A stretch of DNA of 64,000 nucleotides from a virus. Lineage: Duplodnaviria > Heunggongvirae > Uroviricota > Caudoviricetes. The position numbers were made by a program, and so were the translations under genes. Each line of letters opens with the position of its first letter. Position 1 is the first letter of the stretch. Location of the stretch: positions 1-64,000 of IMG/VR virus record IMGVR_UViG_3300047409_000308; one strand, written 5' to 3'. The notes under the pieces were generated by a model that saw only the letters and a list, made by a program, of their open reading frames with translations, searched no databases and was not told the origin of the DNA. Shown piece after piece: positions 8,376-63,724 of the stretch.

Positions 8376-8506
8376 ACATCATCAAAATCCTGCTCCTGAT
8401 CGATCTGGTGCTGCTGTATGCCGTGCTGTATCGCATGCGGTGGCTTGCGATATGGAAACCGTGTTTCGATAGCTTGAAAACCTACATGAGAGACAGGCAA
8501 CGGTGA
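8372..8506 (+). CDS. Small membrane protein (44 aa)
   Basis: ATGA overlap with the peptidase gene; one hydrophobic helix 'IIKILLLIDLVLLYAVLY'. Confidence 0.35.
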   Translation: MNIIKILLLIDLVLLYAVLYRMRWLAIWKPCFDSLKTYMRDRQR

Positions 8507-38400: not shown

Positions 38401-41400
38401 GGACGTTTTACGCATTAGGATATCCGGTGCCTTGGATGGGTCAGTGAATGCGCTCATGAGTTGCGCACCGGAAGTATTCAGGGTGCTCTCTAGGCCGTTA
38501 CGCACCGTGCGCAGTTGCAGCGATTCGTTGCCGAACAGGAACAGCATCTTTGCAATGCCAAGCCCGCCGGATGCCCGTTCCGTTTCCTTCTGCGTTCCGG
38601 CGAGCGTGAGGAATGCCTTGTTGATCGTCTCCGGCGTCATGCCCGTGCCATTGTCGGTCAGCGTAATGGTTCGGTGCGTATCGTCCAGGTCGATGTCAAT
38701 GTTTGCCTCGCCCTTGTGGCCTTGCGCCAAGGCTCCCTTCAACGCATCGAAGGAGTTCTGGAACATCTCCTTGATTGTGACCGGGCCGATGTCCTTCATG
38801 TTGCCGTACAACTGCGGGCCAAGGAGTTTCGCCATGCGCGCCATGTCCACGCCTGGCGTAGCACGCACGCTACCGGGCTCATCGGCAAGCGAGAACTTGC
38901 TGCTCTTGTCCTGGGCAATCAGATCGCGTGCGGCCTGTGCTGCATCATCATAGGAATCATGCATCGACTCCTGCCCCTTGTAGAGCAGGTGATGTTTGGT
39001 ACCGATGACATTGCCCTGCGCGTCACGGTATTCATGGCGCGTCAGGATGGCGGGGAATAGCGGCCCGCGCGACCACGCTTGTACGCTTGAGTGCGGCGTT
39101 ACATCCTTGCCGCCTGTCCGGTCGGAAAGGGAGAGCTTCGTTCCTGGCGCTACTTGGGCTTGGCTGGCGGCATCGATTTCGAGCTTGGCAGCGTTCCGCC
39201 GAGCATCATGTAGCCGAGCGAGTAAATCCGGTCCCCCGGCTGCGCGACTCTCTCTTTCGAGAGCACTTCCTCCGGGGTCGGGATTGGCCCCGGTGGTGCC
39301 CCAGTTGTGAACGAAGTACCGGGTTTCAGCGCCAAAGGTACTGGTTTGCGCAATGTCATGGTGCAATGCCTTTGCAAGGATTCTCATCTGGATGTGGAAG
39401 TCCGCATCCGTCATCATGAATGGTACGCCGTCAGCACGGAAGTTCAATACGGCAATCTCATTCGGCGCAACCTTGGTGTAGGACATTTCAGGATGCGCCT
39501 GCTGCAACAGGGCGTACACGATCTGTTCCTGTTGTAACGTCAGGTCTTGTTTAAACTCGAAGCTGCGCCCTGCGGCATAGCGCGGATCGTTCTGGTTGAA
39601 CGCGATGTCCGGCCTGATCCACGGCACTGCTGCCTGCCGAAACACGTACTGCCATGCACGCACGTACTGGTTCACCTTTATCTGCGGCGTATTGCCGGGG
39701 AAGCGCACCAGCGCATTGGGATTGACGTTACCCTCGAACGCACCCGTCGATAGCGTGATGCTCGGGGCCGGAATGCGCAGGCCCGTGGCGATGATGTCCG
39801 TGCCCGCCCTGGGCTGGATGAGGTTGATGCCGCTCCGGGTGAAGGCTTCCCTCGCTGGCGTGGGCAGGCTCAAGATAGCAGGGCCTACCGCTATTTCCTT
39901 CGCCGGTACTGTCTCCAGCGCCCCTGTGCGGTTGCCGTATTCGTCAGCAAGCGATTGCCTTGTCTGCGGTGCTGCCTCGCCTGTCTGCCTGCGCATCTCA
40001 CCAGTGGTTCCAATTCCCGCCTCGCCTTGGCCCATGCGTTCGAATATATCGTCGGCGGAATGGAAGCCTTGGCCTGTCAATCCATTGCGCAGCGCCTCGA
40101 AGAAATTGCGTATCTTGTGATAGATGCCTGGGAAGAACCCGGACACATGCAGATCGCCCATGGCGTGCGCTGCGAACATGTCGGCCACAGCTTCTTCGTG
40201 CAGGCTTTCCTGCGTCAGGTTCTGTCCGGCATAGCGCGTGCGGATCGAATCCTTGTGCTTGCCAATGGGCCGGTCGAGCCAGCCTTCGCGGTCGATCTTC
40301 GCTTTCAGCAACTCCCAGTTCTTATCCGAGATCAAGCCATGCTCTCGCAGGGCATGGACGATCTCATGGTGCAGGGCGCGCATCGGCTCGCGCATGGGCG
40401 AATCCAAGGCCACCGCAATCATGTTGGCGAAATCGCGCCATTCCCCTTCAGCCCGCCTGCCGACTCCAGCGGGGATGAGGGTTTCAAGCGACAGCGCTAC
40501 CTGCTTCGCATCCAGTCCTGCCTGTGTCATCACGCCCTGGAGCATGCCTCGCATGTTGTAGATTTGCTGTGCCGCGAGAGCAGCCTTGGGCACTACATTC
40601 GGCTGAACCTTGACCGGGGTGCGTATCCTCGCTGCAACCTCTGCGGGTGAACCACCTTGCGGAACGATGACCGACGCCACCCCGCCAGCCGGGGCTGCAC
40701 CACCCTGCCTGCGAGTTGCTTCGTCCGCAGCCATTTGCGCCACCCGTTGCTGGGCAATGGATGGGCCAGGAATCCGGCCAAGGGATTGTTCCTCCGGTGT
40801 CCGTGTGTCTTCTCCAGCTTGCCGCATGGCAGACAGGGCTTCGTCGGACGAGCGCTCAACCCCAGCCGCACGCGCTGCTTCTTCGGTGGGGAAGGTGGCA
40901 ATGGGTTGGGCTTGCCTGACTCCGTTCGTGGACCCGTACAGGGAATGCCCCTGGGTCGTTCCCTGGGCCGTTGCGGTGGTCGTTGGGACAATCTGATGTC
41001 CAGGTATCAACTCGGGTGCGTTCGCGCCTACAGCGGCCCCTACGGGCCTTCCATGAGCCTCTGCGGGCATTCCTGTGGCAGCTTCAGGTGCGGCCAGCTT
41101 GGTCAGGTCGGTGAGGACGGGGAATTTTTGCATCTCCTGTAATATCTTCAGCACAGCAAAGCGCTGCGGGTGGGACATGGTAGTAATGTCTTCCCAGCCC
41201 GTGATCTGCTTCATCAAACTCCGGAACCCTTCGTTCTTCCCGCCGTTGGTGACGATGTTTGCATCGTCATGCGCGGCCTTGGTGATCTGATCCTCAGATA
41301 CCTTGGCCTTCAGCTTGAATCCGTGCCGGATGGCAAGCAGGCGGTCGATGTGGTTTGCTCGGTCTGCTCCGGACGTGGTGCCGTTTTCAGAGAGCGCCGC

Positions 41401-42657
41401 TGTCACCTCGCTGATGGTCATGCGTTCCGGAACAGGCTGTCCCGTCTTCTCCGCTATCCGCTGAACGAGCGGTGCGCCAAGTTCCTCTGTTGAGAATGTC
41501 TCTGCTTGCGGGATGACTGGCGCAGCCGGTGCTGCCTCTAGCGTTGGCGCAGCCTCACCTTTGTGTTCCAGGCGTAATTGTTCTGGATCGACGCCTGTAG
41601 CGCCTACATTCTGCGCCGTGCGGGCTTCTTCCCTGCGTTTTTGTGCTTCCAACAAGGCATACAGACCTTCCTGGCTCGGCATATCACCGGGTTGCAGCAG
41701 GTCCCTCGCCAAGGGCGGCTTCGCCGGGCCTTCCAGTCCAGCCATGCGCGCAAGACCGCCTATTCCGGCCCCACCCACCCCACCGGCCAACCCGGCCTGG
41801 AGGATGTTCTCCATGCGCTTCGAGGTAAAGAAGTCGGTGTCGGTCAGATTTGCCGCTGCCGCTTCCTGCATCACCTGCTGCGCAGCTTCGGTGAACGTCT
41901 CGGCCATCGTGCCGGAAATTGCTGGATGTTCCGCGACAATCGCTGAAAGTTTCGATGCAAGCGTACTTGCGCCAGCCGCTTCGACTTCCTTCGCCGTACC
42001 CCCGCCCAAGGCCCTGCCTATTGCCCGGACCAGCGGCTTAGTCCCATAGGTGGACAATGCCTTTGACATTTGCCCGAGGGTGAAGGTATCGAGCATGCTG
42101 ATTGGGACGGCCACCACCTTGGCCCACAGCTTCGCCTGATCGTCCGGGATGTTCTCCTGCCGGAACTGAAGATAAGTATCGCCAAGGTTGAGCGGATAGG
42201 CCCCGGCAAAGCCCCCGGCCAGCCCGCCAACTACCCCACCGGGCGGTCCAGCCAGGGCAGTACCGGCAGCGGTGCCTGCGGCCATGCCACCGAGGATCAA
42301 GGGGGTCGAGGTGATTGCACTGCCAAGCCCCTGGCCCAATGTTTCGCCAACCACCTGGCGTGGTTTTTCAAGCAGTGCGAATGGACCCGCCGTGGGGATG
42401 TCTGCCGGTGGACCGTTGATGTCTTCCTGGGACAGAGTGCCTATCCCGGCAGCAGCACCAGCCGCCTTCAGATTCGGGATGAATCCCTGGAATGGCTGTT
42501 TAAATGCAGAGCCAAGGGACTCAAAGAAACCGTAGCGATGCGGTTCTATGCCGTGCGCAGGAAGAATCTCTTTTTCGATAACACTGTTGATTTCATCACT
42601 GGACATGTCCTCCGGGAAGCGGACATTGCCAACGCCTTCAATTGCAACAAGAGCCAT
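32485..42657 (-). CDS. Giant multi-domain 'polyvalent' virion protein (3390 aa). Hydrophobic Gly/Ala-rich N-terminus, HExxH #1, GHKL ATPase, HExxH #2, NUDIX box and a weak ART-like segment.
   Basis: Verified on DNA. HEIVH at 40354-40368. GHKL G1 box DNGTGM at 38638-38655, N-box 'EMFQNSFDA', G2 'GGLGIA'. HELVHH at 37261-37278. Nudix box 'GGAIDRNETPQDAVRREVMEEAGY' ending 36376-36402. 'LYHGTGYP' at 35950-35973. Confidence 0.85.
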   Translation of the reverse strand: MALVAIEGVGNVRFPEDMSSDEINSVIEKEILPAHGIEPHRYGFFESLGSAFKQPFQGFIPNLKAAGAAAGIGTLSQEDINGPPADIPTAGPFALLEKPRQVVGETLGQGLGSAITSTPLILGGMAAGTAAGTALAGPPGGVVGGLAGGFAGAYPLNLGDTYLQFRQENIPDDQAKLWAKVVAVPISMLDTFTLGQMSKALSTYGTKPLVRAIGRALGGGTAKEVEAAGASTLASKLSAIVAEHPAISGTMAETFTEAAQQVMQEAAAANLTDTDFFTSKRMENILQAGLAGGVGGAGIGGLARMAGLEGPAKPPLARDLLQPGDMPSQEGLYALLEAQKRREEARTAQNVGATGVDPEQLRLEHKGEAAPTLEAAPAAPVIPQAETFSTEELGAPLVQRIAEKTGQPVPERMTISEVTAALSENGTTSGADRANHIDRLLAIRHGFKLKAKVSEDQITKAAHDDANIVTNGGKNEGFRSLMKQITGWEDITTMSHPQRFAVLKILQEMQKFPVLTDLTKLAAPEAATGMPAEAHGRPVGAAVGANAPELIPGHQIVPTTTATAQGTTQGHSLYGSTNGVRQAQPIATFPTEEAARAAGVERSSDEALSAMRQAGEDTRTPEEQSLGRIPGPSIAQQRVAQMAADEATRRQGGAAPAGGVASVIVPQGGSPAEVAARIRTPVKVQPNVVPKAALAAQQIYNMRGMLQGVMTQAGLDAKQVALSLETLIPAGVGRRAEGEWRDFANMIAVALDSPMREPMRALHHEIVHALREHGLISDKNWELLKAKIDREGWLDRPIGKHKDSIRTRYAGQNLTQESLHEEAVADMFAAHAMGDLHVSGFFPGIYHKIRNFFEALRNGLTGQGFHSADDIFERMGQGEAGIGTTGEMRRQTGEAAPQTRQSLADEYGNRTGALETVPAKEIAVGPAILSLPTPAREAFTRSGINLIQPRAGTDIIATGLRIPAPSITLSTGAFEGNVNPNALVRFPGNTPQIKVNQYVRAWQYVFRQAAVPWIRPDIAFNQNDPRYAAGRSFEFKQDLTLQQEQIVYALLQQAHPEMSYTKVAPNEIAVLNFRADGVPFMMTDADFHIQMRILAKALHHDIAQTSTFGAETRYFVHNWGTTGANPDPGGSALERESRAAGGPDLLARLHDARRNAAKLEIDAASQAQVAPGTKLSLSDRTGGKDVTPHSSVQAWSRGPLFPAILTRHEYRDAQGNVIGTKHHLLYKGQESMHDSYDDAAQAARDLIAQDKSSKFSLADEPGSVRATPGVDMARMAKLLGPQLYGNMKDIGPVTIKEMFQNSFDALKGALAQGHKGEANIDIDLDDTHRTITLTDNGTGMTPETINKAFLTLAGTQKETERASGGLGIAKMLFLFGNESLQLRTVRNGLESTLNTSGAQLMSAFTDPSKAPDILMRKTSAPSGTVVTVKVPETYHDDEDGTDKPIQFPDSYDAHRFLKESPLFEPVNVRVNGDTVPIGKNFPADEYTVMTVAKFPWGKVRVLVAETQYPGYNNVSVLSNGLFQFDEKISKDPLDIFSGSVPYKFFFNIEPDVKADAPNYPISLNRKGYSQAAKSDFETLTKYINVLYANKQDEASTSSFGTLAQWSPDGTRMTRVNLNVPPAKQSTTLKIDKNDKVEVRDGRLYVNNRIMPEMTKENLKAMQRDPTQFRVDQNLLDPQMLIVHDNVLLDGKPYLEEAAKEVGTAQLYGYLRGMGNVFKRVRDAVVREGGPQYADASQVPVGVSVDTEYYGVNTSIPFKAMMLNPTIVRDGFGTDPASIHQASVRVLSTMIHELVHHTEHNHSETGFIPELQRMGVVLAVSGDSQKIVVTLRELLRDYKAVTDYFTRTRNGNLTNRGIRLAGGPESTGSAGVSGRLAEASEAGGNESDLPGVRRLVGEGREDRPAGGEPGRPSAADAGVGPSPSSGRFSLSDKELSPAAKKVLKRMQGGDLPTLMFGNSAKSIFDDGTEIPHKVMHELNKAELIEYPRGGSINSRWIVSVPPESPPESTFSTHPGSSYSMADEEAHARALAETGFWGNAGAGVIFRARDTGRVMLAHRSKDVEQPGTWGTWGGAIDRNETPQDAVRREVMEEAGYSGVFDLTPLYTFKKGAFSYHNFIAEVDHEFTPSMDWETQGYAWTKPDELPKNLHFGVQSILKDERAASILRGPVSQAPSIASVITPEQQVQMDADRRKYSISDVYVRGLTLNPKFANFYDSRSNLRDRNNLPLVLYHGTGYPVHTDTEPRHTLFESFEPGMRGFYPMTFLSTSPSFASGYAGYDAQYGLVDPEDTHMGVVIPAFARGRYLLSEERDDMRRLISLVRNAAFKNAEQLHMVELRTLSYVNPKYHELKTPEGAARILRETKDKLYEQRLLSLLTSMSDLPETQDYIDILQSSIRPTQGMIRRVEAYIVNNFGEATHNWPAMEQHPVHSVIRAAGYDGMTITEDAVTNVAVFDGRNIKSVWNEEFDPKNQKFSLTGDGVRMVRDEGLAERLGRRFPVLADAVHDFTTPMGHRDDLRIKFQDRNLSLQRLNDFIKARNGSVPDAFNSYVKADALNNVIGDRIDRAERTLYTPLIDELKRSKVPINEADAWLAARHAPERNAYLKAKFGVINGSGPSYTDAAAPVLQAKIEAQYGAAQMQKIGDLFDNIIRNTNEVRQDNALTEVYDPALGFKHYAPLRKSEEDVDESPIPQWRKTGLMGDVRGREDPQMTGRKKDPEHVIAQAIMQNEKAIERAESANVGRAFAGLVRSAEPIMKGTVEEQKFVPTQKEWVVDEDGAIRVKQHPAYNDPNTLVVKEADQQNPGKIREAQFLIHDHRLAAAIKGVNPANNETAGTIIKVMGRLNTILARVNTAWNPEFFLSNLPKDIAMAEIVLQGTDYKGVAGRIAGNIPSAIKGVYLALKNDPAAATNEWAMAFDDMSRHGGKTAFLGLRDIGKKIEVIQKRVQAMQDGRGVTGKVMDTVRAVGEYLEQVNTVFENATRLAAYKAAIDAGATKEQAGTLARNITVNFSRGGQYKTLMNSLYLFYNASLQGTMVMVGALKSPRVRKIAYGIVGTAFLIDMLNRAMSPDDKDGENAYDKIMRTKAWAGEHNMILMMPGSTKYIAIPMPYGFNAFYNAGRNLSSMVAGKTPVGKAVNSTIMTALDAANPLGGTQNWLNFVSPTLFDPLVDLSTNKNFAGQTIVPEQNPFSPGQKPNSQLYWSNTALPYVKLSEWINKISGGTTAIPGAVDISPETLSYLMDFITGSAGKFAQRTARGAYMAITGDGADVEVSGIPFLRKVVGGLDKRAETESFYTHAAEVLTIRNEMKEAIATHDAERVKEVLTTHQKDLQIAGVFAKADAQLAALRGQKRKILADSAVPEEFKRTISKRLDAQMDYVIQNSNRLYVSAHAQK

Positions 42658-47487: not shown

Positions 47488-49388
47488 TACCGTCTCCCAT
47501 CCTCGCGTGCTTGTACACGGGTAACGCCCAACTGCCAGTTCACACCGATGCCTGTGGATTCGATCCTGAAATTCGCCTGCCGTCCGCGCAGGCGCACCCA
47601 TAGCTGGTCGGTATAACGCTCTGGATCGACCTGCGACGCCGAGGCCACGGTGGAAACAACGGGTGTACTGTAGGCCGAACCCGGCGCACGGCGCGTCTTC
47701 AAGGTCAGCGTCACCGTGGGGTCCACCACCGTCGAACCCTCGAACGACACATCAGGCAGGATGCGGTTGACGAACATCAGCTTGTCGCCATTGCCAATGT
47801 TCAGGTCAGCCGTTTCAATGAAAGACACAATGGGGGATATAGGCTCGGTGGAACCATCGTCCACCCCCCAGTCCTGCCAGTACAGGTAGCCATTTTGGTC
47901 CGTCGCCTGCGGGTTCGAGCGCAGGTGGCTGTCGATCCAGGCGGAACGGGCGAGCGTGCCGTAGGTCCACACGTCCTCCTTGAAGTTGTACGCCACCATC
48001 CGGTCGATCAGCGTGGAGTTGGCCGAGCAATAGAACCAGATGATCTCGCTAAAAGCATTGTTGTTTGCCGCATATACCTGATAGAACTGCGTCGGGTTGA
48101 TGTCCATGAACACATGCCGCCACAGGTCGCAGCGCAGGGTGTCCACCCGCCCGTTATAGAAATAGAACTTATCCCGCCCCATCCAGTAGGCAATCTCATC
48201 GCCCACCGCCACTGCGTTCGGCCCGGCAAACGAAATGTTGCGCGACAGGAAGGTGAACCCGAACGTATCTGGAGGCCCCAGGAATTGCATCGAATACACC
48301 GATGAATCCGTCCACACCAGCACCTCGGCCTTCATCTTGCGCGAAGTCAGGATCGTGCTTCCGGTGGACAGCCGGTATCCACCGGCGGTATTGGTGATCG
48401 TGGGCGTCCAATCAGCCAGGCTTTCCTGCGTGGCCCAGCGGATGAATAACGGGTCCTGGATCGCAGTGCCAAGCTCATTCGTCCCAAAAGCAACGAGGTG
48501 CCTGTCCTCGGTGAACAGGATCGACGATGCCACCGTGGGCACATCGCTTGCCCCGGCAATCGTGGTCAGGTTGATCGCCCGCGTTCCCACACCGCTGGAA
48601 GCGTCCCAGTAAAAGATCGGCCCGTTCAGCAGGTTGAATACCAAATCCTCGCCGAAATTGTCCTGGCTCCATAACCGAAGCTGCTGCGTAATTCCAATGC
48701 CCATGGTGGAACCCGGTACGGTAATCGATGACCCCCATGTCCCGCGCCCCCAGGTGCCCGTGCCCCAACCCACTCCGGCTGTGGCAAATAACAATCCCAC
48801 GTTCACCTGATACGCCGCCACCACCGCGATTCCACCGCCCGACGAGGTGGCATTCGGCGTGGCTCCGACAACGATGGAATACGAGTTCGCATCGATAACC
48901 GTGATCTCGAATTCCTGGTTTAAATCCCCTGCGGTGAGGCCGTTGAACCCGGTCGCTCCGGAGAAGGTGACGAAATCCCCATTCGCTGCGCCATGCCCGA
49001 CATGGATGACAATCACCGTTGTCGAACCGGAAGTCGTCGAAAACGGATCGGCTCCAATCGTCATGGGGGGAAGGCGCAGCGGGGTTATGTCATTCAGCGT
49101 CCCGCCTTCTTCGAGGTAATACTTCACATTGGTCCCGATGGCGAGCAGGTTCAAACCCGCCAGCGTCAGCCAGCCGAACAACGCCCTGGCTACACCGAGG
49201 AACTGCACCGAGTTGCACCGCACCCAACCACCTATCTTCTGCGGCTGTCCGGACTTGAAGCGCACCATGTCACAGGCATAGAAATGACCGGATTCAGTGA
49301 ATCTGCTTCCCTCCTGGTTCACGCCTGGCTTCAAAGCAAGTGGAATGAGTGGCATGGTCAGATCAATACTCAATCCATTTCGCGCCAC
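47487..49388 (-). CDS. Tail fibre / tail-associated protein (633 aa). GTG start at 49388; alternative ATG at 49355.
   Basis: Thr/Ser/Gly-rich beta-strand composition; 'GTGTWGRGTWG' repeats. Confidence 0.55.
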   Translation of the reverse strand: MARNGLSIDLTMPLIPLALKPGVNQEGSRFTESGHFYACDMVRFKSGQPQKIGGWVRCNSVQFLGVARALFGWLTLAGLNLLAIGTNVKYYLEEGGTLNDITPLRLPPMTIGADPFSTTSGSTTVIVIHVGHGAANGDFVTFSGATGFNGLTAGDLNQEFEITVIDANSYSIVVGATPNATSSGGGIAVVAAYQVNVGLLFATAGVGWGTGTWGRGTWGSSITVPGSTMGIGITQQLRLWSQDNFGEDLVFNLLNGPIFYWDASSGVGTRAINLTTIAGASDVPTVASSILFTEDRHLVAFGTNELGTAIQDPLFIRWATQESLADWTPTITNTAGGYRLSTGSTILTSRKMKAEVLVWTDSSVYSMQFLGPPDTFGFTFLSRNISFAGPNAVAVGDEIAYWMGRDKFYFYNGRVDTLRCDLWRHVFMDINPTQFYQVYAANNNAFSEIIWFYCSANSTLIDRMVAYNFKEDVWTYGTLARSAWIDSHLRSNPQATDQNGYLYWQDWGVDDGSTEPISPIVSFIETADLNIGNGDKLMFVNRILPDVSFEGSTVVDPTVTLTLKTRRAPGSAYSTPVVSTVASASQVDPERYTDQLWVRLRGRQANFRIESTGIGVNWQLGVTRVQAREDGRR

Positions 49389-51711
49389 TGTAGATCAACT
49401 TGAACACAGCGTTGGCCGCAAGCAACTTATTCGCTCCACTCGTGGTCTGGATATTGGCATTGTTCGTCAGCGTCGTGTTGGCATTGGTCGTCAGCAGGTA
49501 GATGACCTGACCGGCACGCGGATTGAGAAAGTTAGTGATTGCGGTCACGCCGCTGTTCGTGACCGTGAAGCAGTTTCCGTACTTCACATCAGGCGTTGCG
49601 GATAGATCAGGGAATAGCTGAAATGGCGAGAGCGCAAGCGGCCCGTACAACTGCGCGACCTTGTCAGTCAGCGGTCGCGGTTCCTCCTTTGTCAAGTCCA
49701 CACCAATGAAGCACGTAGGTTCCGAAAACCACACATCGCCGGTCTTGTTCAGCCCGTCCGTGTCGGAGCGCAGCATGATCTCTATCGTTGTGGTTCCTGC
49801 TGGAATCAACGCCATCGCAGTCAGCAATTCCCAATTGCCGCTGCCGCTGTGGACGCAGTTGCCGAAGGTATTGATCTTCAAATTGCCCAATCCCGCCACG
49901 GCGCTCTTGCACCACACGGAGGCAACAAGTGTGCGCTTTTCCAGGTTCGCAGCCGAGACCTGGTTTGGCGAACGATTTGCGCCGGTAGGAGATGCGATAG
50001 AAAACGCCAGATTCGAGCGTGATGCTGCGAGCGTACATTTGACCGAGAACGCAGCGCCACGCACGGTCGCGGCATCTTGTGACCAAGCCCCGCTATTCAC
50101 ATGCCAATTCGTCGGGCATGAGTTGGCAGCGTCCCAGGACTGGAAGTGAGAGTTAGCTATAAGATTCTGGCGCGACTTGTTCGACTGCGGGAACTGCAAG
50201 TTGAACCCGACCGGGCCGAATTCTACGTTGTTCCCCCATCCCTCGTCCAAGATCATTGAATTGATGTTTGCAAAGTTCTTCGTGAGGTGTACACCAGTGA
50301 TCGAGCAGGAGAACGAATTGGCGTCGAACCAGTACAGCTTTGCCGGTGATCCAGTCTCGTAGTAAGGCTCATGCACATTGATGTTTATGCCGCCAATCTT
50401 GTATGCTGCGGTGCCCACGGCAATTGTCTCGATCGGATCGCAGTCGCCTTTATAGAGCGTATTGGCGGTGCCGTTGAGCACATAGGGGATATCGAACCTG
50501 CCATTGACGGTGATGTTGCGTCCGCTGTTCGCGTTGGACGACGGGAAGCCGCCATCGTTAAAGTACCCGACCAACGCGTTGACGCCAGCGGCGGTCGTGT
50601 TCCGTATGTAAATGTTGTCAATCTTGGCGTAGTAGCAACCGCCTGCGACAACTCCGGTCGGGGAAGGATAGATCGTTGCGAGGGAACCCGTTCCAACACG
50701 GAACGAAACCTGATCGAAGTTTTCAACATATATAGACTCGACCACGGGATGCGTTCCAAGTACGCATACCCCGCTTTGGTTCGCGGCATAGCTTTTAAGC
50801 AAGAACCGCCTGAACTCTTGCCCGCGCCATGTGTTCAGCGTCATCGCATAGCCAACGCCGTAATAGCTGAATTCGACGCCTCCAAACTCCGGATGCGCAG
50901 TATCCCCAACACATTCGGCCTCGATGCCAACGTTGAAGAAATCAAGCCTGGTTGAATATTTGTACCGCCCTGCTGGGACTCGCAGCGTTCTACCTGGGTT
51001 GGCCGCGATTGCAGCCTGCCACCCAGCCGTTACATCGCGTGTTGCGGTGCGAGCTTGGATGTCCGCAATATCGGCAGCGCTCATGTACTGAAACACACTG
51101 ACCCACTGGCGCGCATTCGATTGCAACTCGGTCTGCACCGCCCCGACTCCGGCTTGCAGGAAGCTGACGAGGGCAGAGCCGTTTGGACCGGATATATCTC
51201 CACCCGTTCCGCCGTTAGCTGCTGGTAAAAGCCCCCCGGTTCCACCGTTGGCTACCGGCAAAACACCTGACACAGAAGTTGCAAGGTTGACAGCGGGAAA
51301 AACACCAATATCGACGGCATTGACGACATTGGTTCCATCGCAAAACAAAATCATGATGCCGCCATTCGGCACGGCTACTCCGGTTCCAGCCGCCGTCTTC
51401 AGCGTAAGCGCAAATCCGCCGGTCGTGGCATTGCGAATGACATATAGTTTCGATGAAGTTGGACAAATGACATTGCGCGGCGCGGTCAGCACCCCGCTCA
51501 CATCAAGGATCATCTGCCGCGCTTCGTCAGCAGCACCGTTAGCCACTGTCAGCACATAATTGGCCGCATCCGGATGGATGACAGCAGCCCGGCCAGCGAT
51601 GGCTTGTTCGAGTAAGACCCAGTTGGAGGTAGCGATATTTCCCCAGGTAAAATTCTGCTCGCCAGGAACCATCTCCACGGTACGGGTAAGCGGCGAATAG
51701 CTGCTCGGCAT
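49363..51711 (-). CDS. Tail fibre or tailspike with parallel beta-helix-like region (782 aa)
   Basis: GGGAG RBS before the ATG at 51711; 'ANGGTGGLLPAANGGTGGDISG' repeat; Asn/Gly/Thr-rich. Confidence 0.6.
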   Translation of the reverse strand: MPSSYSPLTRTVEMVPGEQNFTWGNIATSNWVLLEQAIAGRAAVIHPDAANYVLTVANGAADEARQMILDVSGVLTAPRNVICPTSSKLYVIRNATTGGFALTLKTAAGTGVAVPNGGIMILFCDGTNVVNAVDIGVFPAVNLATSVSGVLPVANGGTGGLLPAANGGTGGDISGPNGSALVSFLQAGVGAVQTELQSNARQWVSVFQYMSAADIADIQARTATRDVTAGWQAAIAANPGRTLRVPAGRYKYSTRLDFFNVGIEAECVGDTAHPEFGGVEFSYYGVGYAMTLNTWRGQEFRRFLLKSYAANQSGVCVLGTHPVVESIYVENFDQVSFRVGTGSLATIYPSPTGVVAGGCYYAKIDNIYIRNTTAAGVNALVGYFNDGGFPSSNANSGRNITVNGRFDIPYVLNGTANTLYKGDCDPIETIAVGTAAYKIGGININVHEPYYETGSPAKLYWFDANSFSCSITGVHLTKNFANINSMILDEGWGNNVEFGPVGFNLQFPQSNKSRQNLIANSHFQSWDAANSCPTNWHVNSGAWSQDAATVRGAAFSVKCTLAASRSNLAFSIASPTGANRSPNQVSAANLEKRTLVASVWCKSAVAGLGNLKINTFGNCVHSGSGNWELLTAMALIPAGTTTIEIMLRSDTDGLNKTGDVWFSEPTCFIGVDLTKEEPRPLTDKVAQLYGPLALSPFQLFPDLSATPDVKYGNCFTVTNSGVTAITNFLNPRAGQVIYLLTTNANTTLTNNANIQTTSGANKLLAANAVFKLIYSGAKWIEY

Positions 51712-51712
51712 A

Positions 51713-52141
51713 TCAACTCCCGGTAATTCTAACAATAGCCGTCAGCGCACCTGCTGGCGGGAACGTCACAAGGAAGGAAGTCTGCGCCGTCTTGTCCAAC
51801 CCGAAGTCGAGCACCGACACCGCACGGTTTGCCTTGGACGAATTGTAGATAAGGCCGTAGCGAATGCCTGAGCCAGTCAGACTGAAAGTAACATCCTCGA
51901 AATCGCAATAGGCTGTGACGCCTGATGTAGCGGGGGCAATATTTGTCAGCGCCAGTCCGCCAGCGGTGTAGCCCGGCAGAGTGATCTCACCCGTCGTTGA
52001 GTAGGCTGTCGTGGAGGAATTTAGCGTGGCGGAGGAGGTGAACAACGCGAGCTTGAGTACATCACCACCAACGTCGATGACATGTAGTCCCAGGAATAAT
52101 TCCCGCAAAAAGCTGACAGGGGTGCATTGCGTCGATGCCAT
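51713..52141 (-). CDS. Hypothetical tail protein (142 aa)
   Basis: Stop 1 nt from the next gene's start. Confidence 0.45.
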   Translation of the reverse strand: MASTQCTPVSFLRELFLGLHVIDVGGDVLKLALFTSSATLNSSTTAYSTTGEITLPGYTAGGLALTNIAPATSGVTAYCDFEDVTFSLTGSGIRYGLIYNSSKANRAVSVLDFGLDKTAQTSFLVTFPPAGALTAIVRITGS

Positions 52142-56387: not shown

Positions 56388-57662
56388 TCATCCTGCCGAC
56401 AAGGCTTGCATTTGGGCGGCGCTCTGTTGACTTAGGTAGATATACACAGGCGCGATCGTGCCGCCCCACTGATTCGTTCCACCACTATGTCCAATTTCAA
56501 TCACTGCGCCTGAGCCCATACTGCCATCAAAGAGCACGTTTGTGCCCGGAGCCACTCCGTCCCCGGTTGCAGCCAATCCGGCAGCGCCCCATGACGTTAC
56601 GCGCTTTCGCACGCCAGTTGACATTGCGCTCAGACCGACTTTTATGACCTGATTCGTCCCGTCGTTCACATCGATTTCAGTATCCACGCCAGTGCTGCGC
56701 AGATACATAATTCGGCCCGTCGAAGAGGCTGCAATAGCGTAGCAGTTACCGGCAGTTGCGTTTGATGTGTAGTTTGTCGTCAATCCCGCAAAGGCCGTTC
56801 CTTGCGTAAAATCGATGTTTCCGGCGCTTGCTAAACTCAGCACGTCCGCAGCCCTTGCAGCGCCAGCGCTTGCCATCGGACTCGTAGCGAAGATATTCGC
56901 CGCGAGCGCCTCGAACTGATTGAAGTCCGCTTCGATTGCGTCGCCTGACGATCCAAAGATGATGCCATAGACGGCATTGAGGACGGACGCATTGAGTTGG
57001 ACGCGCGTGTAGGTCACAGCATTGAGTTGCGCAGTCACATCCAGTGTTGTCGCGCCTTGCTGGATTACGACGGTGCCACTGCCAGTTACGCGTCGCAGGA
57101 AGACGCTGTAGGTGCGCGAGGAAGCCGCCGCAACCAGCGTTTGCAGGATCGTGCCCCCTGGCGCGGTGGCGGTGAGCGTGCTCGCCGTATTTGCCACGCC
57201 AGTAATGCCGGTTGCCGTTTTTGCTGCGGTTACACCAACCTTGACCCAGCTTGCATCCGTCATGTCTCTGATACTGGCGCTTGGAGTGACCAACTGAATT
57301 CCAGCACTTTCCGGAAAATAACCTCCATACGGTCCCACTGCCGTATCCCGGCCAAGATAACAACTGCGCGGGACCCCGGTTGAGATTGATGCCCACAGTC
57401 CGCTTGCGAGCTTGGTCAGAGCAGGCCCGACTCGGGTAAAGGTGGCGGGGCCAACTCCCTGCAATAGCGCTAGATTGACGCTGCCATTGCCTAAATCATT
57501 CAACGGAAGAATAAACGAAGTCGCACCCACGCCACTGCCGCCAGCAGTACCGCCAATGCCGCCGCCAGGTTTGCTGATGCCGCCAGGCGCACTGATGCCA
57601 GGCAGGGACGCAAGTCCCCCCGCAGCCGATATTCCCAGAGCGCTGCCAACCCCGCCGATCAT
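56388..57662 (-). CDS. Tail fibre-like protein (424 aa)
   Basis: Gly/Ala/Thr/Ser-rich composition. Confidence 0.5.
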   Translation of the reverse strand: MIGGVGSALGISAAGGLASLPGISAPGGISKPGGGIGGTAGGSGVGATSFILPLNDLGNGSVNLALLQGVGPATFTRVGPALTKLASGLWASISTGVPRSCYLGRDTAVGPYGGYFPESAGIQLVTPSASIRDMTDASWVKVGVTAAKTATGITGVANTASTLTATAPGGTILQTLVAAASSRTYSVFLRRVTGSGTVVIQQGATTLDVTAQLNAVTYTRVQLNASVLNAVYGIIFGSSGDAIEADFNQFEALAANIFATSPMASAGAARAADVLSLASAGNIDFTQGTAFAGLTTNYTSNATAGNCYAIAASSTGRIMYLRSTGVDTEIDVNDGTNQVIKVGLSAMSTGVRKRVTSWGAAGLAATGDGVAPGTNVLFDGSMGSGAVIEIGHSGGTNQWGGTIAPVYIYLSQQSAAQMQALSAG

Positions 57663-58201
57663 TACATATTTGCCCCTGCGTTGATGACGGTCAGGTCGGC
57701 ATAGCCTGCGGTGAAGGCCGATACATTCAAGCGCGTTGCAAAAGGCGGGGCAAAGTAATTGCCGTCCGCCGAAGCCGTCTGGTTAAAGAGGATCGAGTGC
57801 GAGAAGATGCGCGCCATCTCCACCATCACCCCAGGCGCGGAGAACGCCGCCCCGGAATTGGCTACGGTGTAGGTGACGCTGTTCTGGTTCGGGACCGACG
57901 CAACCGCAAAATCCCCGTCAAGCGGCGCACCCGCCCCCTGGACATGAATCCAGTCCCCAACGGACAATCCGTGGTTGGTGATAGGCACCGTTGCCACCGT
58001 GGTAGATCGGGTGATCGGCGACAAGGGGGCAACCGGCGTAAGGATGTTGTCGAACGTGTGCTGCACCGTGTAGGTCAGGTTGGCGTTCGAGGAGAGCTTC
58101 ACCCCGAACCCGACGACGAAGCCTGGCACGAGCCACGTGAGCGGTATCCAGTTGGAGAATCCTGCGGCTGTGACCCTGACCGTTGCCGGACGCATTGCCA
58201 T
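57662..58201 (-). CDS. Hypothetical structural protein (179 aa)
   Basis: ATG/stop overlap chain in the late operon. Confidence 0.45.
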   Translation of the reverse strand: MAMRPATVRVTAAGFSNWIPLTWLVPGFVVGFGVKLSSNANLTYTVQHTFDNILTPVAPLSPITRSTTVATVPITNHGLSVGDWIHVQGAGAPLDGDFAVASVPNQNSVTYTVANSGAAFSAPGVMVEMARIFSHSILFNQTASADGNYFAPPFATRLNVSAFTAGYADLTVINAGANM

Positions 58202-59249: not shown

Positions 59250-59834
59250 TTAAACCTCAAACCGATTGCCCTTGCTGGAGTTATCGACATGAGGAATGAT
59301 TCTTAAATTCCAGGGCGTGTGCAGTCCACATACCACATCAGACCGAATTGGAATAATGTGGTCAACTGTATATAACTCTCCAGTCGTTTTTGTCATCTGC
59401 ATTGCCATCCGGTACATGTTTTTAATCTGTTCACGATCTTCCCTCGACAACCACTTCGGCATAGCAGTCCTGACGCGCCTGCTATACATCTTCGCATTAA
59501 CTGCGTCTTGCTCAGGGTGTGTCTTTTTCCAAGTCCTTTTATATTGGCGTCTTAACTCAATATCAGTCAGATTTGCCTTTGCAATCACCAACTCCTTGTT
59601 GGCTGCATAGTACCTTTGTTTCGATGCCAATCCCGCCGCTGACTTATTGTAGGCGCTGAAGTATTCCGCCCGGCCCGCAGCACTTTGCTGCCACTCCACC
59701 TTGATGCACTCAACACACGCACCCTTGGTTTTACGCAGAGCTATGTGTCCATGCTTGCATGGCAGCCCGGTAAAGTAGTGCGTCGCTCCAATCCGTTTCG
59801 CTTCAGCCCTCGTCGTCGGTACTTCGTCTTTCAT
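59250..59834 (-). CDS. HNH homing endonuclease inserted between the capsid and tail genes (194 aa)
   Basis: N-terminal 'YFTGLPCKHGHIALRKTKGACVEC'. HNH core 'VDHIIPIRSDVVCGLHTPWNLRIIPHVDNSSKGNR'. Confidence 0.7.
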   Translation of the reverse strand: MKDEVPTTRAEAKRIGATHYFTGLPCKHGHIALRKTKGACVECIKVEWQQSAAGRAEYFSAYNKSAAGLASKQRYYAANKELVIAKANLTDIELRRQYKRTWKKTHPEQDAVNAKMYSRRVRTAMPKWLSREDREQIKNMYRMAMQMTKTTGELYTVDHIIPIRSDVVCGLHTPWNLRIIPHVDNSSKGNRFEV

Positions 59835-59897: not shown

Positions 59898-60809
59898 TCA
59901 ACTCACACCTGGCGAACCCCAGACTCCTAGCGGGTCGGACACGCCGAATGAATAGCGGGCCCTCGCCTTGTAACGAACATTCCCAGTCTCGAAGTCCCCA
60001 AGCATTTCTGTCTTCAGCGGAACCCTATCGAAATACTTAAGGCCATTTGGGATGTCGGTTTTTATGAACCACCCGTTAGCGTCGGTCAAATAATGGTTGA
60101 TCGTCCACCCATCCGGGATGGAGTTGAGCGACTTCAGCGCATTGATGTCGTTGTTGGCGGTATTCACGCGCAGTTCGGACTTCAAGAGGCGCTGCACGAT
60201 GAACATGTACTCTTTGGGGATGATGAGCTTCTTTGCCTGGCAGGCGATCAGGAGGCCCCGTTCGTCGAGCCAGCCCGCGATCTGGATGATCGCTGCTTCA
60301 AGGCTGGTTTCATTCAGATCGGCTCCGGTGGTTGGCCGGTTGGAATTCACTCCGCCTGAGGTCAATGGGTGCGCAGTGTTGAACAGGGTTACGCCGTCGC
60401 CATAGGTGAAGGCAGCAGTGAAGCCGTTGTTGAGGATGTTGGCTGCAATCACCTGCTTGGTATAGGCCATGCCACGGGCGAGGGCCTTGGTGTAGCGGGC
60501 CGAGAGGCTGTCGTACAGGTTGTCCTCCATGGCCTCCTCGGTGATGGCGAAACCCATGGCGATGGTCTGGTGGGTGTAGCGGGCGGACCAGGCTTCCTGC
60601 GCGTTGTCGTAGGCGATGGCAGCCCCTTCCTGCTTGACTGGAGCGGCACCGAAGCCTGAGAGCTTCAGTTCTTCCTCGAACGAGCGCTCGGAGGTTTCCT
60701 GTTCGTAGATTTCCTTGTCTTCTTCCTCGTACTTCTTGTACTCCAGCCCAAAGAGGGCGTTCAAGCCGGGGAGGAGTTCCTTGAGTAGCTGTGCGCGACT
60801 GATTGCCAT
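59898..60809 (-). CDS. Major capsid protein, lambda gpE-like (Phage_cap_E family), 303 aa
   Basis: N-terminus 'MAISRAQLLKELLPGL' resembles lambda E 'MSMYTTAQLLA'. GGGAGAG RBS. Sits after the decoration-like gene, as in lambda. Confidence 0.65.
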   Translation of the reverse strand: MAISRAQLLKELLPGLNALFGLEYKKYEEEDKEIYEQETSERSFEEELKLSGFGAAPVKQEGAAIAYDNAQEAWSARYTHQTIAMGFAITEEAMEDNLYDSLSARYTKALARGMAYTKQVIAANILNNGFTAAFTYGDGVTLFNTAHPLTSGGVNSNRPTTGADLNETSLEAAIIQIAGWLDERGLLIACQAKKLIIPKEYMFIVQRLLKSELRVNTANNDINALKSLNSIPDGWTINHYLTDANGWFIKTDIPNGLKYFDRVPLKTEMLGDFETGNVRYKARARYSFGVSDPLGVWGSPGVS

Positions 60810-60825
60810 GATTGTCTCTCCCGAG

Positions 60826-61431
60826 TTAGACGCCAGCGGCGATTTGATAGGAGTGGATACCGAAGTTCCACGATACGACAAGCTCCGTGAACGCATCGCC
60901 CACCGTGCTGCCCTGGCCTGGGTTGTTGACGAAATCGATCAAACGCCACGGGAATCCAGCGGTGGTTGCTGTGGTTGCCGCAGCCGCCATCAAGCTCTTG
61001 CCGGTCACGGTCGAGCCGGTCAGGCCGGTAAATCCGGACGTGGCGGAGACATTGACGTTCTCGCCGAGGGCAGTCTGGGGCACGGTGCCATCGGCCTGAA
61101 TCTGGAACAATGCAAACGGATCGTCGATCACATGTCCCAAGGCGTCAGCAGCCACGGTGCTCGCGGGCCAGAAATTGCTGTTGATGAAATAGCGCGTCGA
61201 GCTTGCCTGGGTGAATTGGCAGCCCATGAACACCCCGACCACCCTGGGGCTGGTGCCTACGTCCATCGCCACCAGAGTGCCGGTGGTGGCATCGATGACC
61301 ACCGCCTCACCGTTGAAGATGTTGCTCGAATAAGCCGATGCGATCTTGATCGCCCGCGTCGAACCGGCAAATGGCGTGCCGCCGATCTTGTTGATGGGGC
61401 GCAGGCCGTAAGGCTGGAGGCTGAAAGCCAT
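60826..61431 (-). CDS. Head decoration-like protein, lambda gpD position (201 aa)
   Basis: GAGGAG RBS; beta-rich Thr/Ala/Gly composition; immediately upstream of the major capsid gene. Confidence 0.4.
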   Translation of the reverse strand: MAFSLQPYGLRPINKIGGTPFAGSTRAIKIASAYSSNIFNGEAVVIDATTGTLVAMDVGTSPRVVGVFMGCQFTQASSTRYFINSNFWPASTVAADALGHVIDDPFALFQIQADGTVPQTALGENVNVSATSGFTGLTGSTVTGKSLMAAAATTATTAGFPWRLIDFVNNPGQGSTVGDAFTELVVSWNFGIHSYQIAAGV

Positions 61432-61452: not shown

Positions 61453-61926
61453 TCAAAGATTAGGTTCTTCGCTGCGCGAACCGAAGGTCACGGTGCGCTT
61501 CCTGTCGTTGATGAGCGGCATGCGCGGGTCTTCGCCACGCATGTAGTTGGTGGACGTTGCACGCTCCTGCATCGCCGTGCGTTTGTCGTAATACGCCTTG
61601 ATTTTCTCTGCCTGCACGGTGGGGATGCTGCATAGGAGAAGCCCGCCGATTTCCACGTTGCCCGCCTGCGTCCAGCGGGAGTTTGGATCGGTAATGATGT
61701 GCAGTTCTGGATGGTCTTCCAGGCGCTCCGGGACCCAGCCCTCGCGGTAGCGCTTGGACATGTTCGTGGGATCGGGCTCTCCGAGCGTGGAAGCCCGGAT
61801 GTAGCGGAAGGTCTTGCCTTCCTGCGGAGTAGGATCAGGCAGGGTCGATGGCGGGAGCCAGGACTCAGGATCGGGCCGGGATTCTAGCTCTCTGCTGCGT
61901 GGGTGTTTTGGTATTCCGCGTGGCAT
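61453..61926 (-). CDS. Hypothetical head-module protein (157 aa)
   Basis: ORF in the late-operon chain. Confidence 0.4.
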   Translation of the reverse strand: MPRGIPKHPRSRELESRPDPESWLPPSTLPDPTPQEGKTFRYIRASTLGEPDPTNMSKRYREGWVPERLEDHPELHIITDPNSRWTQAGNVEIGGLLLCSIPTVQAEKIKAYYDKRTAMQERATSTNYMRGEDPRMPLINDRKRTVTFGSRSEEPNL

Positions 61927-61950: not shown

Positions 61951-63024
61951 TCATGCAGATTTGTCCCTTAACTGGACTACCTGCTGTGCATAGAGTTCAA
62001 GCGGAACGCCAAGCCTTTTCGCTACGGCTACCTGCGTCTGCGTGAGCGTCACTTTCTTCGAGGGGCCGGAGCGGGTGACTCCGGCGACAACGGAACGTGC
62101 GGTGGAGCGAGTCTCAGACTCGGGCGCAGACCTCTCGACGGGGTTGCCAAACTGCTCCGGGAAGTGCTTGCGCATTTCGGCATCGAGGCGGGCGTAGTAT
62201 TTATCGCTCCTCGCATCCATGCCTTCCTTCACAAATTTCGAGTGAAGGCCATAAGCCGTGGCGGTCATGACTTCATCTTTGCCGAACCAGTCGTTCTTTG
62301 CCGCCCACGCTACCGCTTGTGGGTCGGGTTGGTTCGGACGCGGGGTGGGTTGTACCGATTCCCCAGCCCGTTCAACGCCTTGTACTCCCCTTTCCCCTTT
62401 TTGTAAAGATTCTCTTTGTAAAGGTTTAAACGCATCAGCCTCGCGCTTCTCGGCGGCGGCATTGTTCATTTCGACGAGGGCGTCCGCAATCTTGGCCCCG
62501 TCCCCGCTGCTGTAGGCTTCTTCGTACTTTCGCTTCGCCTCATTCAATGCAAGTTCGGTGCGCTTTTTCACCTGCTCCAAAAGGTACGATTCACCCTTGG
62601 ACAAGTAGGCTTTGGTCTGCGTCAATTCTCCGGAGAGGCTCTGCGCATAGCGGATCGCTTCCTCATTTTCCCGTGTCGCCGCCTCGCGGGCGCTTTTCTC
62701 GTCCTGGTACTTCATGTACAACTGGCGCATGCGCTGCTGCGAGCGCTTGCCGTAATCCCGGATTTCCTCCTCCAGCGCATCCTTCGATGCCGGGATGTCA
62801 GACAGTTCCTCCTCTGCCTGCTTCAGCTTCTTGCGGCGTACCTCGTTTAACTTGCGCTCCTCCTCGGGCAGGTCATCGATGACCTCGATCTCAATCTCTG
62901 GCGCAGCTTCCTTTACTGGTTTTTTTAAGACCACTCCCTCCTCGGCTTCGACCTCGGCTCCAGGGGTATCCTGATCGAAGTTGAGGTTATCCTCGTCTTT
63001 GCCATTCGCTTTATTCGTTGCCAT
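61951..63024 (-). CDS. Scaffolding-like protein: Glu/Lys-rich coiled-coil (357 aa)
   Basis: Acidic/Lys-rich helical N-terminal two thirds; position upstream of D/E-like genes. Confidence 0.45.
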   Translation of the reverse strand: MATNKANGKDEDNLNFDQDTPGAEVEAEEGVVLKKPVKEAAPEIEIEVIDDLPEEERKLNEVRRKKLKQAEEELSDIPASKDALEEEIRDYGKRSQQRMRQLYMKYQDEKSAREAATRENEEAIRYAQSLSGELTQTKAYLSKGESYLLEQVKKRTELALNEAKRKYEEAYSSGDGAKIADALVEMNNAAAEKREADAFKPLQRESLQKGERGVQGVERAGESVQPTPRPNQPDPQAVAWAAKNDWFGKDEVMTATAYGLHSKFVKEGMDARSDKYYARLDAEMRKHFPEQFGNPVERSAPESETRSTARSVVAGVTRSGPSKKVTLTQTQVAVAKRLGVPLELYAQQVVQLRDKSA

Positions 63025-63036
63025 GATTTGCCCTCG

Positions 63037-63528
63037 TTAACCTGCCTTGGTGATGCCGCGCGGGTCAGGCGTCACCCCTTCCACCACGTCCTCGTTGATG
63101 AATCGATACTCCTGCCCGAGGTACATGAACCTCGTCCCTGCATAGGAGCGCATCAGGATGAAGTCCCCCTCCTTGCACCAAGGCAATGAGTAGCGGGTTT
63201 TGTCGGTGTAGCAATCCTTGCCAAGGGCAATGACAAAACCCACGATGGTGGCCTGCTGTTCGCGCTCCAGGGTTTCCGCCGCCTTGACAATACCGCCACG
63301 GGTCGCCTCCTTTAAACGCGGAATGGCGATCAGGATTTTCCACCCGGCAGGCTGCGGCAGGTTCTCGGCTGCTTCCCAGGCAAGCTCTGCGATGGGGTGC
63401 TCCACGTCGATTTCATTGAAGGTATTACGCGGTTCGTAATATTGCTCCTCCACCTGTGTCTTAAACTTCTTCACCCCATGCTCCGATTGGATTCCACCAA
63501 AGGAAGTCACTTCCGCTGTCTCACTCAT
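63037..63528 (-). CDS. GroES-like (cpn10 fold) co-chaperonin homolog with an N-terminal extension (163 aa)
   Basis: Aligns with GroES: 'KILIAIPRLKEATRGGIVKAAE' against '[22 protein letters not shown]', 'ATIVGFVIALG' against 'GEVLAVGNG', and 'KEGDFILMRSYAGTRFMYLGQEYRFINEDVVEGV' against '[36 protein letters not shown]'. Confidence 0.55.
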   Translation of the reverse strand: MSETAEVTSFGGIQSEHGVKKFKTQVEEQYYEPRNTFNEIDVEHPIAELAWEAAENLPQPAGWKILIAIPRLKEATRGGIVKAAETLEREQQATIVGFVIALGKDCYTDKTRYSLPWCKEGDFILMRSYAGTRFMYLGQEYRFINEDVVEGVTPDPRGITKAG

Positions 63529-63724
63529 CTCCACCCCCTTGTGCTTTGATTGCCGCATCCACCATGTCGAGCAGCATGCGCTCGGCATAGGCCAAACCTT
63601 CGATTACGCCGTTCATGCGCCGGTAGGCGGCAAAATCCTGGCAGGCCCCGGTCGCCATGCTGTCGGTTACATCGTTCATGCGGTCGCGCAGGTGCTTACG
63701 CAGAAGTTCAGCGTTGATTTCCAT
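63521..63724 (-). CDS. Hypothetical protein (67 aa)
   Basis: Internal ATG of track ORF 63521..63907. Confidence 0.35.
   Translation of the reverse strand: MEINAELLRKHLRDRMNDVTDSMATGACQDFAAYRRMNGVIEGLAYAERMLLDMVDAAIKAQGGGDE

Follow-up and report, generated by a model that had tools for sequence, protein, structure and literature searches.

When a phage carries a GroES-like gene among its head genes, is the product a lid for the host's GroEL, or has the GroES fold been put to some other use? The question is raised by a gene in IMG/VR record IMGVR_UViG_3300047409_000308, a virus assigned to the Caudoviricetes, of which we analysed positions 1 to 64,000 (we call this whole stretch of 64,000 nucleotides the window). 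A first-pass annotation, made from the sequence alone, had described the gene as a GroES-like co-chaperonin at the head of the capsid module. Below we ask how firmly the protein can be placed among the Cpn10 proteins, how tightly the gene is tied to the capsid genes, and what the residues that should touch GroEL look like, and then we weigh the possible functions.

The gene and its Cpn10 domain

The gene lies on the minus strand. Its longest open reading frame extends as far as 63588; the ATG at 63528 shares bases with the stop codon of an upstream ORF of 67 amino acids (ATGAGTGA), and the same start is used by an independent gene call for this contig. From this start, the protein has 163 amino acids and a mass of 18.4 kDa. 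The source contig is about 74 kb long with 57% G+C, and a public collection contains the identical protein on a 74-kb contig under the JGI name "co-chaperonin GroES (HSP10)." The gene and its parts are as follows (with the basis for each in parentheses):

63037..63528, minus strand: GroES-like (Cpn10-family) gene, 163 amino acids (open reading frame and start codon)
63355..63528, minus strand: N-terminal extension, residues 1-58 (AlphaFold2 pLDDT and homologue alignment)
63070..63354, minus strand: Cpn10 domain, residues 59-153 (Pfam, PDB profile, and Foldseek alignments)
63244..63318, minus strand: equivalent of the mobile loop, residues 71-95 (Cpn10 alignments and helix prediction)
63040..63069, minus strand: C-terminal tail past the end of GroES, with the motif D-P-R-G-I-x-K/R (family conservation)

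Several kinds of comparison lead to the same family. Residues 60-152 match positions 4-92 of the 93 in Pfam's Cpn10 profile (PF00166) with 31 bits, where the curated gathering cut-off is 21.1 bits, and PHROG 3188, "co-chaperonin GroES," matches the protein with E = 3.9e-13. When the protein was compared to all PDB sequences with phmmer, the hits below E = 0.4 were Cpn10 chains only, and a family profile from 68 members also found nothing but Cpn10 chains (down to E = 3.5e-07). We used the alignment of those 68 members to build a single-chain AlphaFold2 model, which has a mean pLDDT of 74.7, with most of the Cpn10 domain at 86-94. A Foldseek search of the PDB with this model gave Cpn10, GroES, or gp31 structures for all of the top 36 matches, with target-normalised TM scores of 0.54-0.75 if two-domain Cpn20/23 chains are excepted. 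So the earlier claim that the protein aligns with GroES over the whole domain is borne out by Pfam, PHROG 3188, the PDB profile, and Foldseek, and structure prediction, which had been suggested as a check, gives the same answer. We also considered the fold of the dehydrogenases and quinone reductases that are likewise called "GroES-like," but this first appears at Foldseek rank 37, with E > 0.1. In our judgement the resemblance in sequence and in predicted structure is far beyond chance, and the protein belongs in the Cpn10 homologous family.

All 11 of the NCBIfam models for GroES score the protein far under threshold (13-35 bits, as against cut-offs of 96-147; the best score is 34.6 bits for a cut-off of 120), so it is not an orthologue of cellular GroES. 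If we take E. coli GroES and Mycobacterium tuberculosis Cpn10 as examples of the cellular proteins, then there is homology across a domain of about 95 residues with the same predicted beta-barrel, and the G-G-hydrophobic motif of the loop is shared, but the identity in structural alignments is just 20-28% or so. The stretch that corresponds to the roof hairpin (residues 104-117) has been kept at nearly the length that it has in cellular Cpn10. The hydrophobic N- and C-terminal strands, which form the ring interface in GroES, are conserved across the family and are compatible with a heptameric ring.

The relationship to the phage co-chaperonins of T4 (gp31) and RB49 (CocO) is at the level of the fold only. 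The overall fold is alike, with the gp31 structure 1g31 at Foldseek rank 31, but the identity to gp31 in structural alignment is 10-12%, and neither gp31 entry (1g31 or 2cgt) appeared in the phmmer or profile searches of PDB sequences. Furthermore, gp31 does not have the roof hairpin (PMC5649160), which is retained in our protein. By sequence, the protein belongs to the GroES group described from the virioplankton and not to the gp31/CocO family. The annotation had also likened the position of the gene to that of gene 31, and here it was mistaken: in a T4-type genome, gene 31 is found in the company of genes for nucleotide metabolism, between those for dCMP deaminase/polynucleotide kinase and DNA ligase, away from the head genes.

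The capsid gene block and the family

Upstream of the GroES-like gene, and on the same strand, are the genes for the large terminase and for a portal-sized protein of 795 amino acids, as well as two small ORFs. The order within the block is portal, small ORFs, GroES-like gene, 357-aa protein, 157-aa protein, gpD-like decoration protein (201 aa), and HK97-type major capsid protein. Neighbors of the gene in this block are:

63521..63724, minus strand: acidic ORF of 67 amino acids directly upstream, whose stop overlaps the start codon of the GroES-like gene
61951..63024, minus strand: charged, acidic, scaffold-like protein of 357 amino acids (PHROG 28737 at 2.5e-38)
61453..61926, minus strand: conserved protein of the cassette, 157 amino acids (PHROG 36003 at 2.9e-17)
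60826..61431, minus strand: probable capsid decoration or cement protein, 201 amino acids (AlphaFold2 model with pLDDT of 80, and Foldseek)
59898..60809, minus strand: HK97-type major capsid protein, 303 amino acids (Pfam Phage_capsid_4, PHROG 371, and gene call)

The major capsid protein matches Phage_capsid_4 from Pfam (44 bits, 3.9e-11), Mu-like gpT, and PHROG 371 (major head protein), and the gene has 72% DNA identity with the major capsid protein gene of Pag-Yong1. (The longest ORF at this location, 59898-60896 on the minus strand, would encode 332 amino acids and shares 71 nucleotides with the end of the 201-aa gene; the 303-aa form, which starts at 60809, is backed by the gene call and by the relatives.) The 357-aa protein has 35% charged residues and a pI of 5.4, and its relatives are annotated as "kinesin-like." For the 201-aa protein, the best Foldseek matches are mostly cement or decoration proteins (from Pam3, Sf11, lambda gpD, P21 SHP, TW1, and BB1) at E values of 0.014-0.4, which weakly suggests a gpD/SHP-like decoration fold as the probable one. 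We found no match to the 157-aa protein in Pfam, NCBIfam, or the PDB sequences, and PDB sequence searches with the major capsid protein and with the 201-aa protein also gave nothing useful. As was proposed at the outset, the GroES-like gene does come first in the capsid block; the decoration protein as a neighbor is supported weakly.

Inside the block, we found no terminator-like or promoter-like site on the coding strand. Translational coupling links the 67-aa ORF to the GroES-like gene, and in 41 of 77 related loci a homologue of this ORF could be detected immediately ahead of that gene. At the other end of the block, an endonuclease VII/HNH-like gene (59250-59834, minus strand; PHROGs 1035 and 8660) follows directly after the major capsid protein gene, and ahead of it, at 59901-59874, is the one strong sigma-70-like site of the minus strand. 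Possibly this gene was inserted into the structural block as a homing endonuclease. Finally, the GroES-like gene is not part of a groESL operon, which would place it beside groEL: neither an inspection of the large ORFs nor tblastn with an E. coli GroEL sequence identified a GroEL homologue in the window or in the adjoining 10 kb.

How general is this arrangement? IMG/VR, GTDB genomes, and GenBank together yielded 138 related loci. In 57 of these, the sequence continues downstream for 4.2 kb or more, and each of the 57 has a homologue of the major capsid protein on the same strand, some 2.1 kb downstream. A homologue of the 357-aa protein comes right after the GroES-like gene in 54 of the 57, the 157-aa protein lies between the scaffold-like and decoration-like genes in 54, and all four downstream genes are present in the same order in 53. 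On the other side, a homologue of the portal is found upstream in 76 of the 77 loci with enough upstream sequence. The homologues from GenBank are in phages of Pelagibacter (HTVC023P and HTVC027P), Planktothrix (Pag-Yong1), Roseobacter (CRP-901 and CRP-902), and Caulobacter (RW), as well as in 023Pt_psg01 and DSL-LC04, and they are likewise annotated as GroES. They are 28-43% identical to our protein, as compared to 44-59% for those from IMG/VR metagenomic contigs. In the GenBank phages whose surroundings we examined (HTVC027P, Pag-Yong1, 023Pt_psg01, RW, and CRP-901), the order of the five genes is the same. Three GenBank records (OQ594354.1, OL906435.1, and PP438419.1), which are assigned to different hosts among the cyanobacteria (Synechococcus MinM2, Planktothrix Pag-Yong1, and Pra-JY27), are each 65,014 bp long with identical hit statistics, so they may be one phage that was deposited three times, and the stated hosts should be viewed with caution.

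To judge by a HMMER scan with the family profile, this is a large family. Of 1.84 billion representative sequences, 991 clusters had E <= 1e-10 and only 2876 had E <= 1e-3, which indicates a large family, with about 990 clusters at 50% identity, that stands well apart from cellular GroES. We do not think that these are prophage or cellular genes: the matches in the genome collection are all on contigs of metagenome-assembled genomes (MAGs), many of them short and several of about 60 kb, and no family member was found in the isolate genomes of that collection. Overall, phage-like contigs and MAG contigs were the only places where the family turned up. The only match on a chromosome-sized contig is a full cassette near the end of a 466-kb contig from a Pseudomonas MAG (JASGKM010000021.1, 2188-14511; locus L097), and this could be either an integrated or carried phage or a chimera from assembly or binning.

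Both the family and its place in the genome had been described before. Marine et al. reported in 2017 that the GroES of virioplankton is syntenic with a "kinesin-like" protein and a head protein, and they proposed a role like that of gp31 (PMC5649160). The synteny and the hypothesis were repeated for pelagiphages (bioRxiv 10.1101/2019.12.14.876532), and GroES is one of 13 core genes in HTVC023P-type phages (PMC9599517). The GroES of these phages (PHROG 3188) belongs to the same family as ours and has the same gene order: in our window, too, the GroES-like gene is followed on the same strand by the charged "kinesin-like" protein and then by the head protein. Only details differ, such as the N-terminal extension of 59 residues, which is among the longest.

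We also note a few features from the rest of the window. A single ORF of 3390 amino acids (32485-42657, minus strand) has the Pfam domains LPD38, NUDIX, and HATPase_c as well as ART-PolyVal below threshold; it looks like one of the giant "polyvalent" proteins that are found in some phages and conjugative elements. An AAA_5 ATPase (8503-10161, plus strand) adjoins a CobT/VWA-domain protein (10593-12728, plus strand), and by their domains we take these two genes, which lie in the genome's early or replication half, to be a CobS/CobT-like pair. Last, the genes at 57662-58201 and 49363-51735 (both on the minus strand) encode probable tail-fibre or depolymerase proteins. One of them has an endosialidase beta-barrel domain that falls just short of the threshold (30.7 versus 35 bits) and the other has the C-terminal domain of a phage depolymerase, which may hint at a capsulated host.

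The GroEL-contact loop and the phage-specific residues

In cellular Cpn10, the loop that touches GroEL has a glycine and then three hydrophobic residues, which in E. coli are I25-V26-L27. The first-pass annotation had noticed a GGIV motif in this region, and G78-G79-I80-V81 are indeed there, but the next residue is a lysine (K82) at the position of Leu27, so that the tripeptide is I-V-K (nucleotides 63283-63291) instead of three hydrophobics. Compared with cellular Cpn10, the loop also has four extra residues, and AlphaFold2 predicts a helix for residues 84-92, which follow the tripeptide.

The lysine is not a peculiarity of this phage. Across 250 unique members of the family, the third position of the tripeptide is Lys or Arg in 211 (84%) and hydrophobic in the other 39. 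A charged residue in the tripeptide was already noted for virioplankton in 2017, when 23% of the GroES sequences were reported to have position two or three occupied by a charged or polar residue (PMC5649160). The members that are at most 39% identical to the core of our protein (from CRP-901, HTVC027P, 023Pt, and loci L136-L140) all have a hydrophobic third residue, and several of these most distant members have the canonical motif GG[IV][ILF][LMI]P. Wherever there is enough sequence downstream, they occupy the same cassette. Because the most distant members keep the hydrophobic residue or the canonical motif, it seems that the lineage probably began as a GroEL binder with a standard loop and that the lysine is a derived state.

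Other parts of the protein also set the family apart. The N-terminal extension of about 60 residues, which had been called unusual, is real, but it is unusual only in its length. Every member of the family has an extension, and the number of residues ahead of the proline that matches Pro5 of E. coli is 59 here, while the family median is 29 and the range is 11-72. Residues 1-35 are predicted to be disordered (AlphaFold2 pLDDT below 50). A short predicted helix at 46-54 covers a stretch that is conserved in the family and that ends with L57-P58; A54, L57, and P58 are each shared by 111-118 of 120 homologues. Among homologues of 72-77% identity, the last 30 or so residues of the extension are conserved at the protein level. 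At the other end, the C-terminal tail of 10 residues has no counterpart in E. coli GroES, yet its motif is nearly always present (of 250 sequences, 242 have D155, 249 have P156, 233 have R157, and 241 have G158). Within the domain, Y107, W117, C118, R133, R142, and D147 are invariant or nearly so in the 250 unique sequences, and these have no equivalent in E. coli GroES either. The obligatory N-terminal extension and the invariant residues that are not those of GroES suggest to us that the protein has additional or different surfaces for interactions.

What might the protein do?

Our preferred explanation is that this is a phage-specific and highly diverged Cpn10 that acts as a GroES-type lid for the host's GroEL and helps to fold the products of the adjacent head genes. 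We would put the probability of this at roughly 0.6. Its gene and those for the head proteins would be expressed as a single late transcription unit, and the protein would form a heptameric lid. It would cap the host's GroEL, because the phage has no GroEL that we could detect. Its main client would be the HK97-type major capsid protein (33 kDa), and the portal might be another. The terminal additions may tether the lid to its partners in assembly. If this is correct, then the job would be analogous to that of T4 gp31 and RB49 CocO, a phage-made lid for the host's GroEL that aids head assembly, while the protein itself would descend from a true GroES. Nevertheless, the rationale for gp31 is not directly transferable, since a capsid protein of 33 kDa does not need an enlarged folding chamber.

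Much of what we have described fits with a lid. The homology to Cpn10 covers the full domain, the top 36 structural matches are exclusively Cpn10, GroES, or gp31, the loop retains G-G and two hydrophobic residues, and the strands of the ring interface are conserved. The gene has a fixed slot and the status of a core gene (PMC9599517), the start/stop overlap and the lack of any terminator-like site on the coding strand of the block are as expected if it is expressed with its neighbors, there is no GroEL homologue in the window or the next 10 kb, and the same function was proposed earlier on (PMC5649160). On the other hand, gp31 and cellular Cpn10 have three hydrophobics in the loop, while 84% of this family has Lys or Arg at the third contact residue. 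The longer loop with its predicted helix, the low scores from the NCBIfam models for GroES, the many invariant residues without a counterpart in GroES, and the DPRG tail also sit uneasily with an ordinary lid. Our literature search for experiments on any member of the family, such as virion proteomics or complementation, found none.

These same features could be explained if the Cpn10 fold had been recruited to serve capsid assembly as a dedicated factor, with the capping of GroEL weakened or lost. Such a factor would act on the scaffold, the portal, or the capsid protein by means of the N-terminal extension, the helix ahead of the domain, the W-C-K hairpin, and the DPRG tail. Even in very divergent phages the gene is without exception tied to the capsid cassette, every member has additions at both termini, and the distance from cellular GroES is considerable, as is apparent from the HMMER scan (just 2876 of 1.84 billion sequences at E <= 1e-3) and from the NCBIfam scores. 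Along with the charged third residue and the invariant residues that GroES does not have, these observations make us take the proposal seriously, but we still think that it is unlikely. The G-G and hydrophobic residues of the loop are kept, and the deepest members of the cassette have canonical GGxxLP loops. Also, where the members of a family are around 50% identical, conserved residues say little about new surfaces. Finally, we know of no precedent for a Cpn10 that takes part in phage assembly independently of GroEL.

A related and similarly doubtful proposal is that the protein is an obligatory, capsid-dedicated component that is not a plain lid: it might act directly on the scaffold, the portal, or the capsid protein, or it might bridge these to GroEL. 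The features that can be cited for it are the derived ones, namely the lysine in the tripeptide, the longer and partly helical loop, the invariant W-C-K hairpin, the DPRG tail, and the N-terminal tether.

It also seems quite improbable to us that the protein is a general auxiliary chaperone that serves in host takeover by boosting or retuning GroEL for many phage and host proteins, so that the position in the head operon would reflect late timing only. It is true that the capsid protein is small enough for the ordinary chamber of GroEL and GroES, and GroES genes are widespread in the phages of the virioplankton in several genomic contexts, including some beside a phage GroEL (PMC5649160). But auxiliary genes are usually mobile, while this one keeps the same position in all of 57 loci and counts among the core genes (PMC9599517). 

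As a last alternative, the gene could encode a prohead protease or some different head protein with a chance resemblance to GroES. In lambda-like phages the slot just after the portal gene is that of the prohead protease, but no protease or other non-Cpn10 family, which is what the annotation had named as the outcome that would overturn it, was matched in Pfam, PHROGs, NCBIfam, PDB sequences, or Foldseek (where the top 36 matches are all Cpn10, GroES, or gp31), so the sequence and the predicted fold together exclude this idea.

Returning to the lid for GroEL, which we prefer, we should be clear that the gene family, its fixed position on the capsid side, and this functional reading were all published before. 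Because the family and its position have already been described in abundant aquatic phages, our find is real but ordinary: a published family of GroES-like phage proteins gains a member, and the overall picture is unchanged. But the family is very common, and most of its members have a charged residue where contact with GroEL normally needs a hydrophobic one. What is at stake is whether the folding of the capsids of these phages depends on the host's GroEL or whether the GroES fold has been turned to another use.
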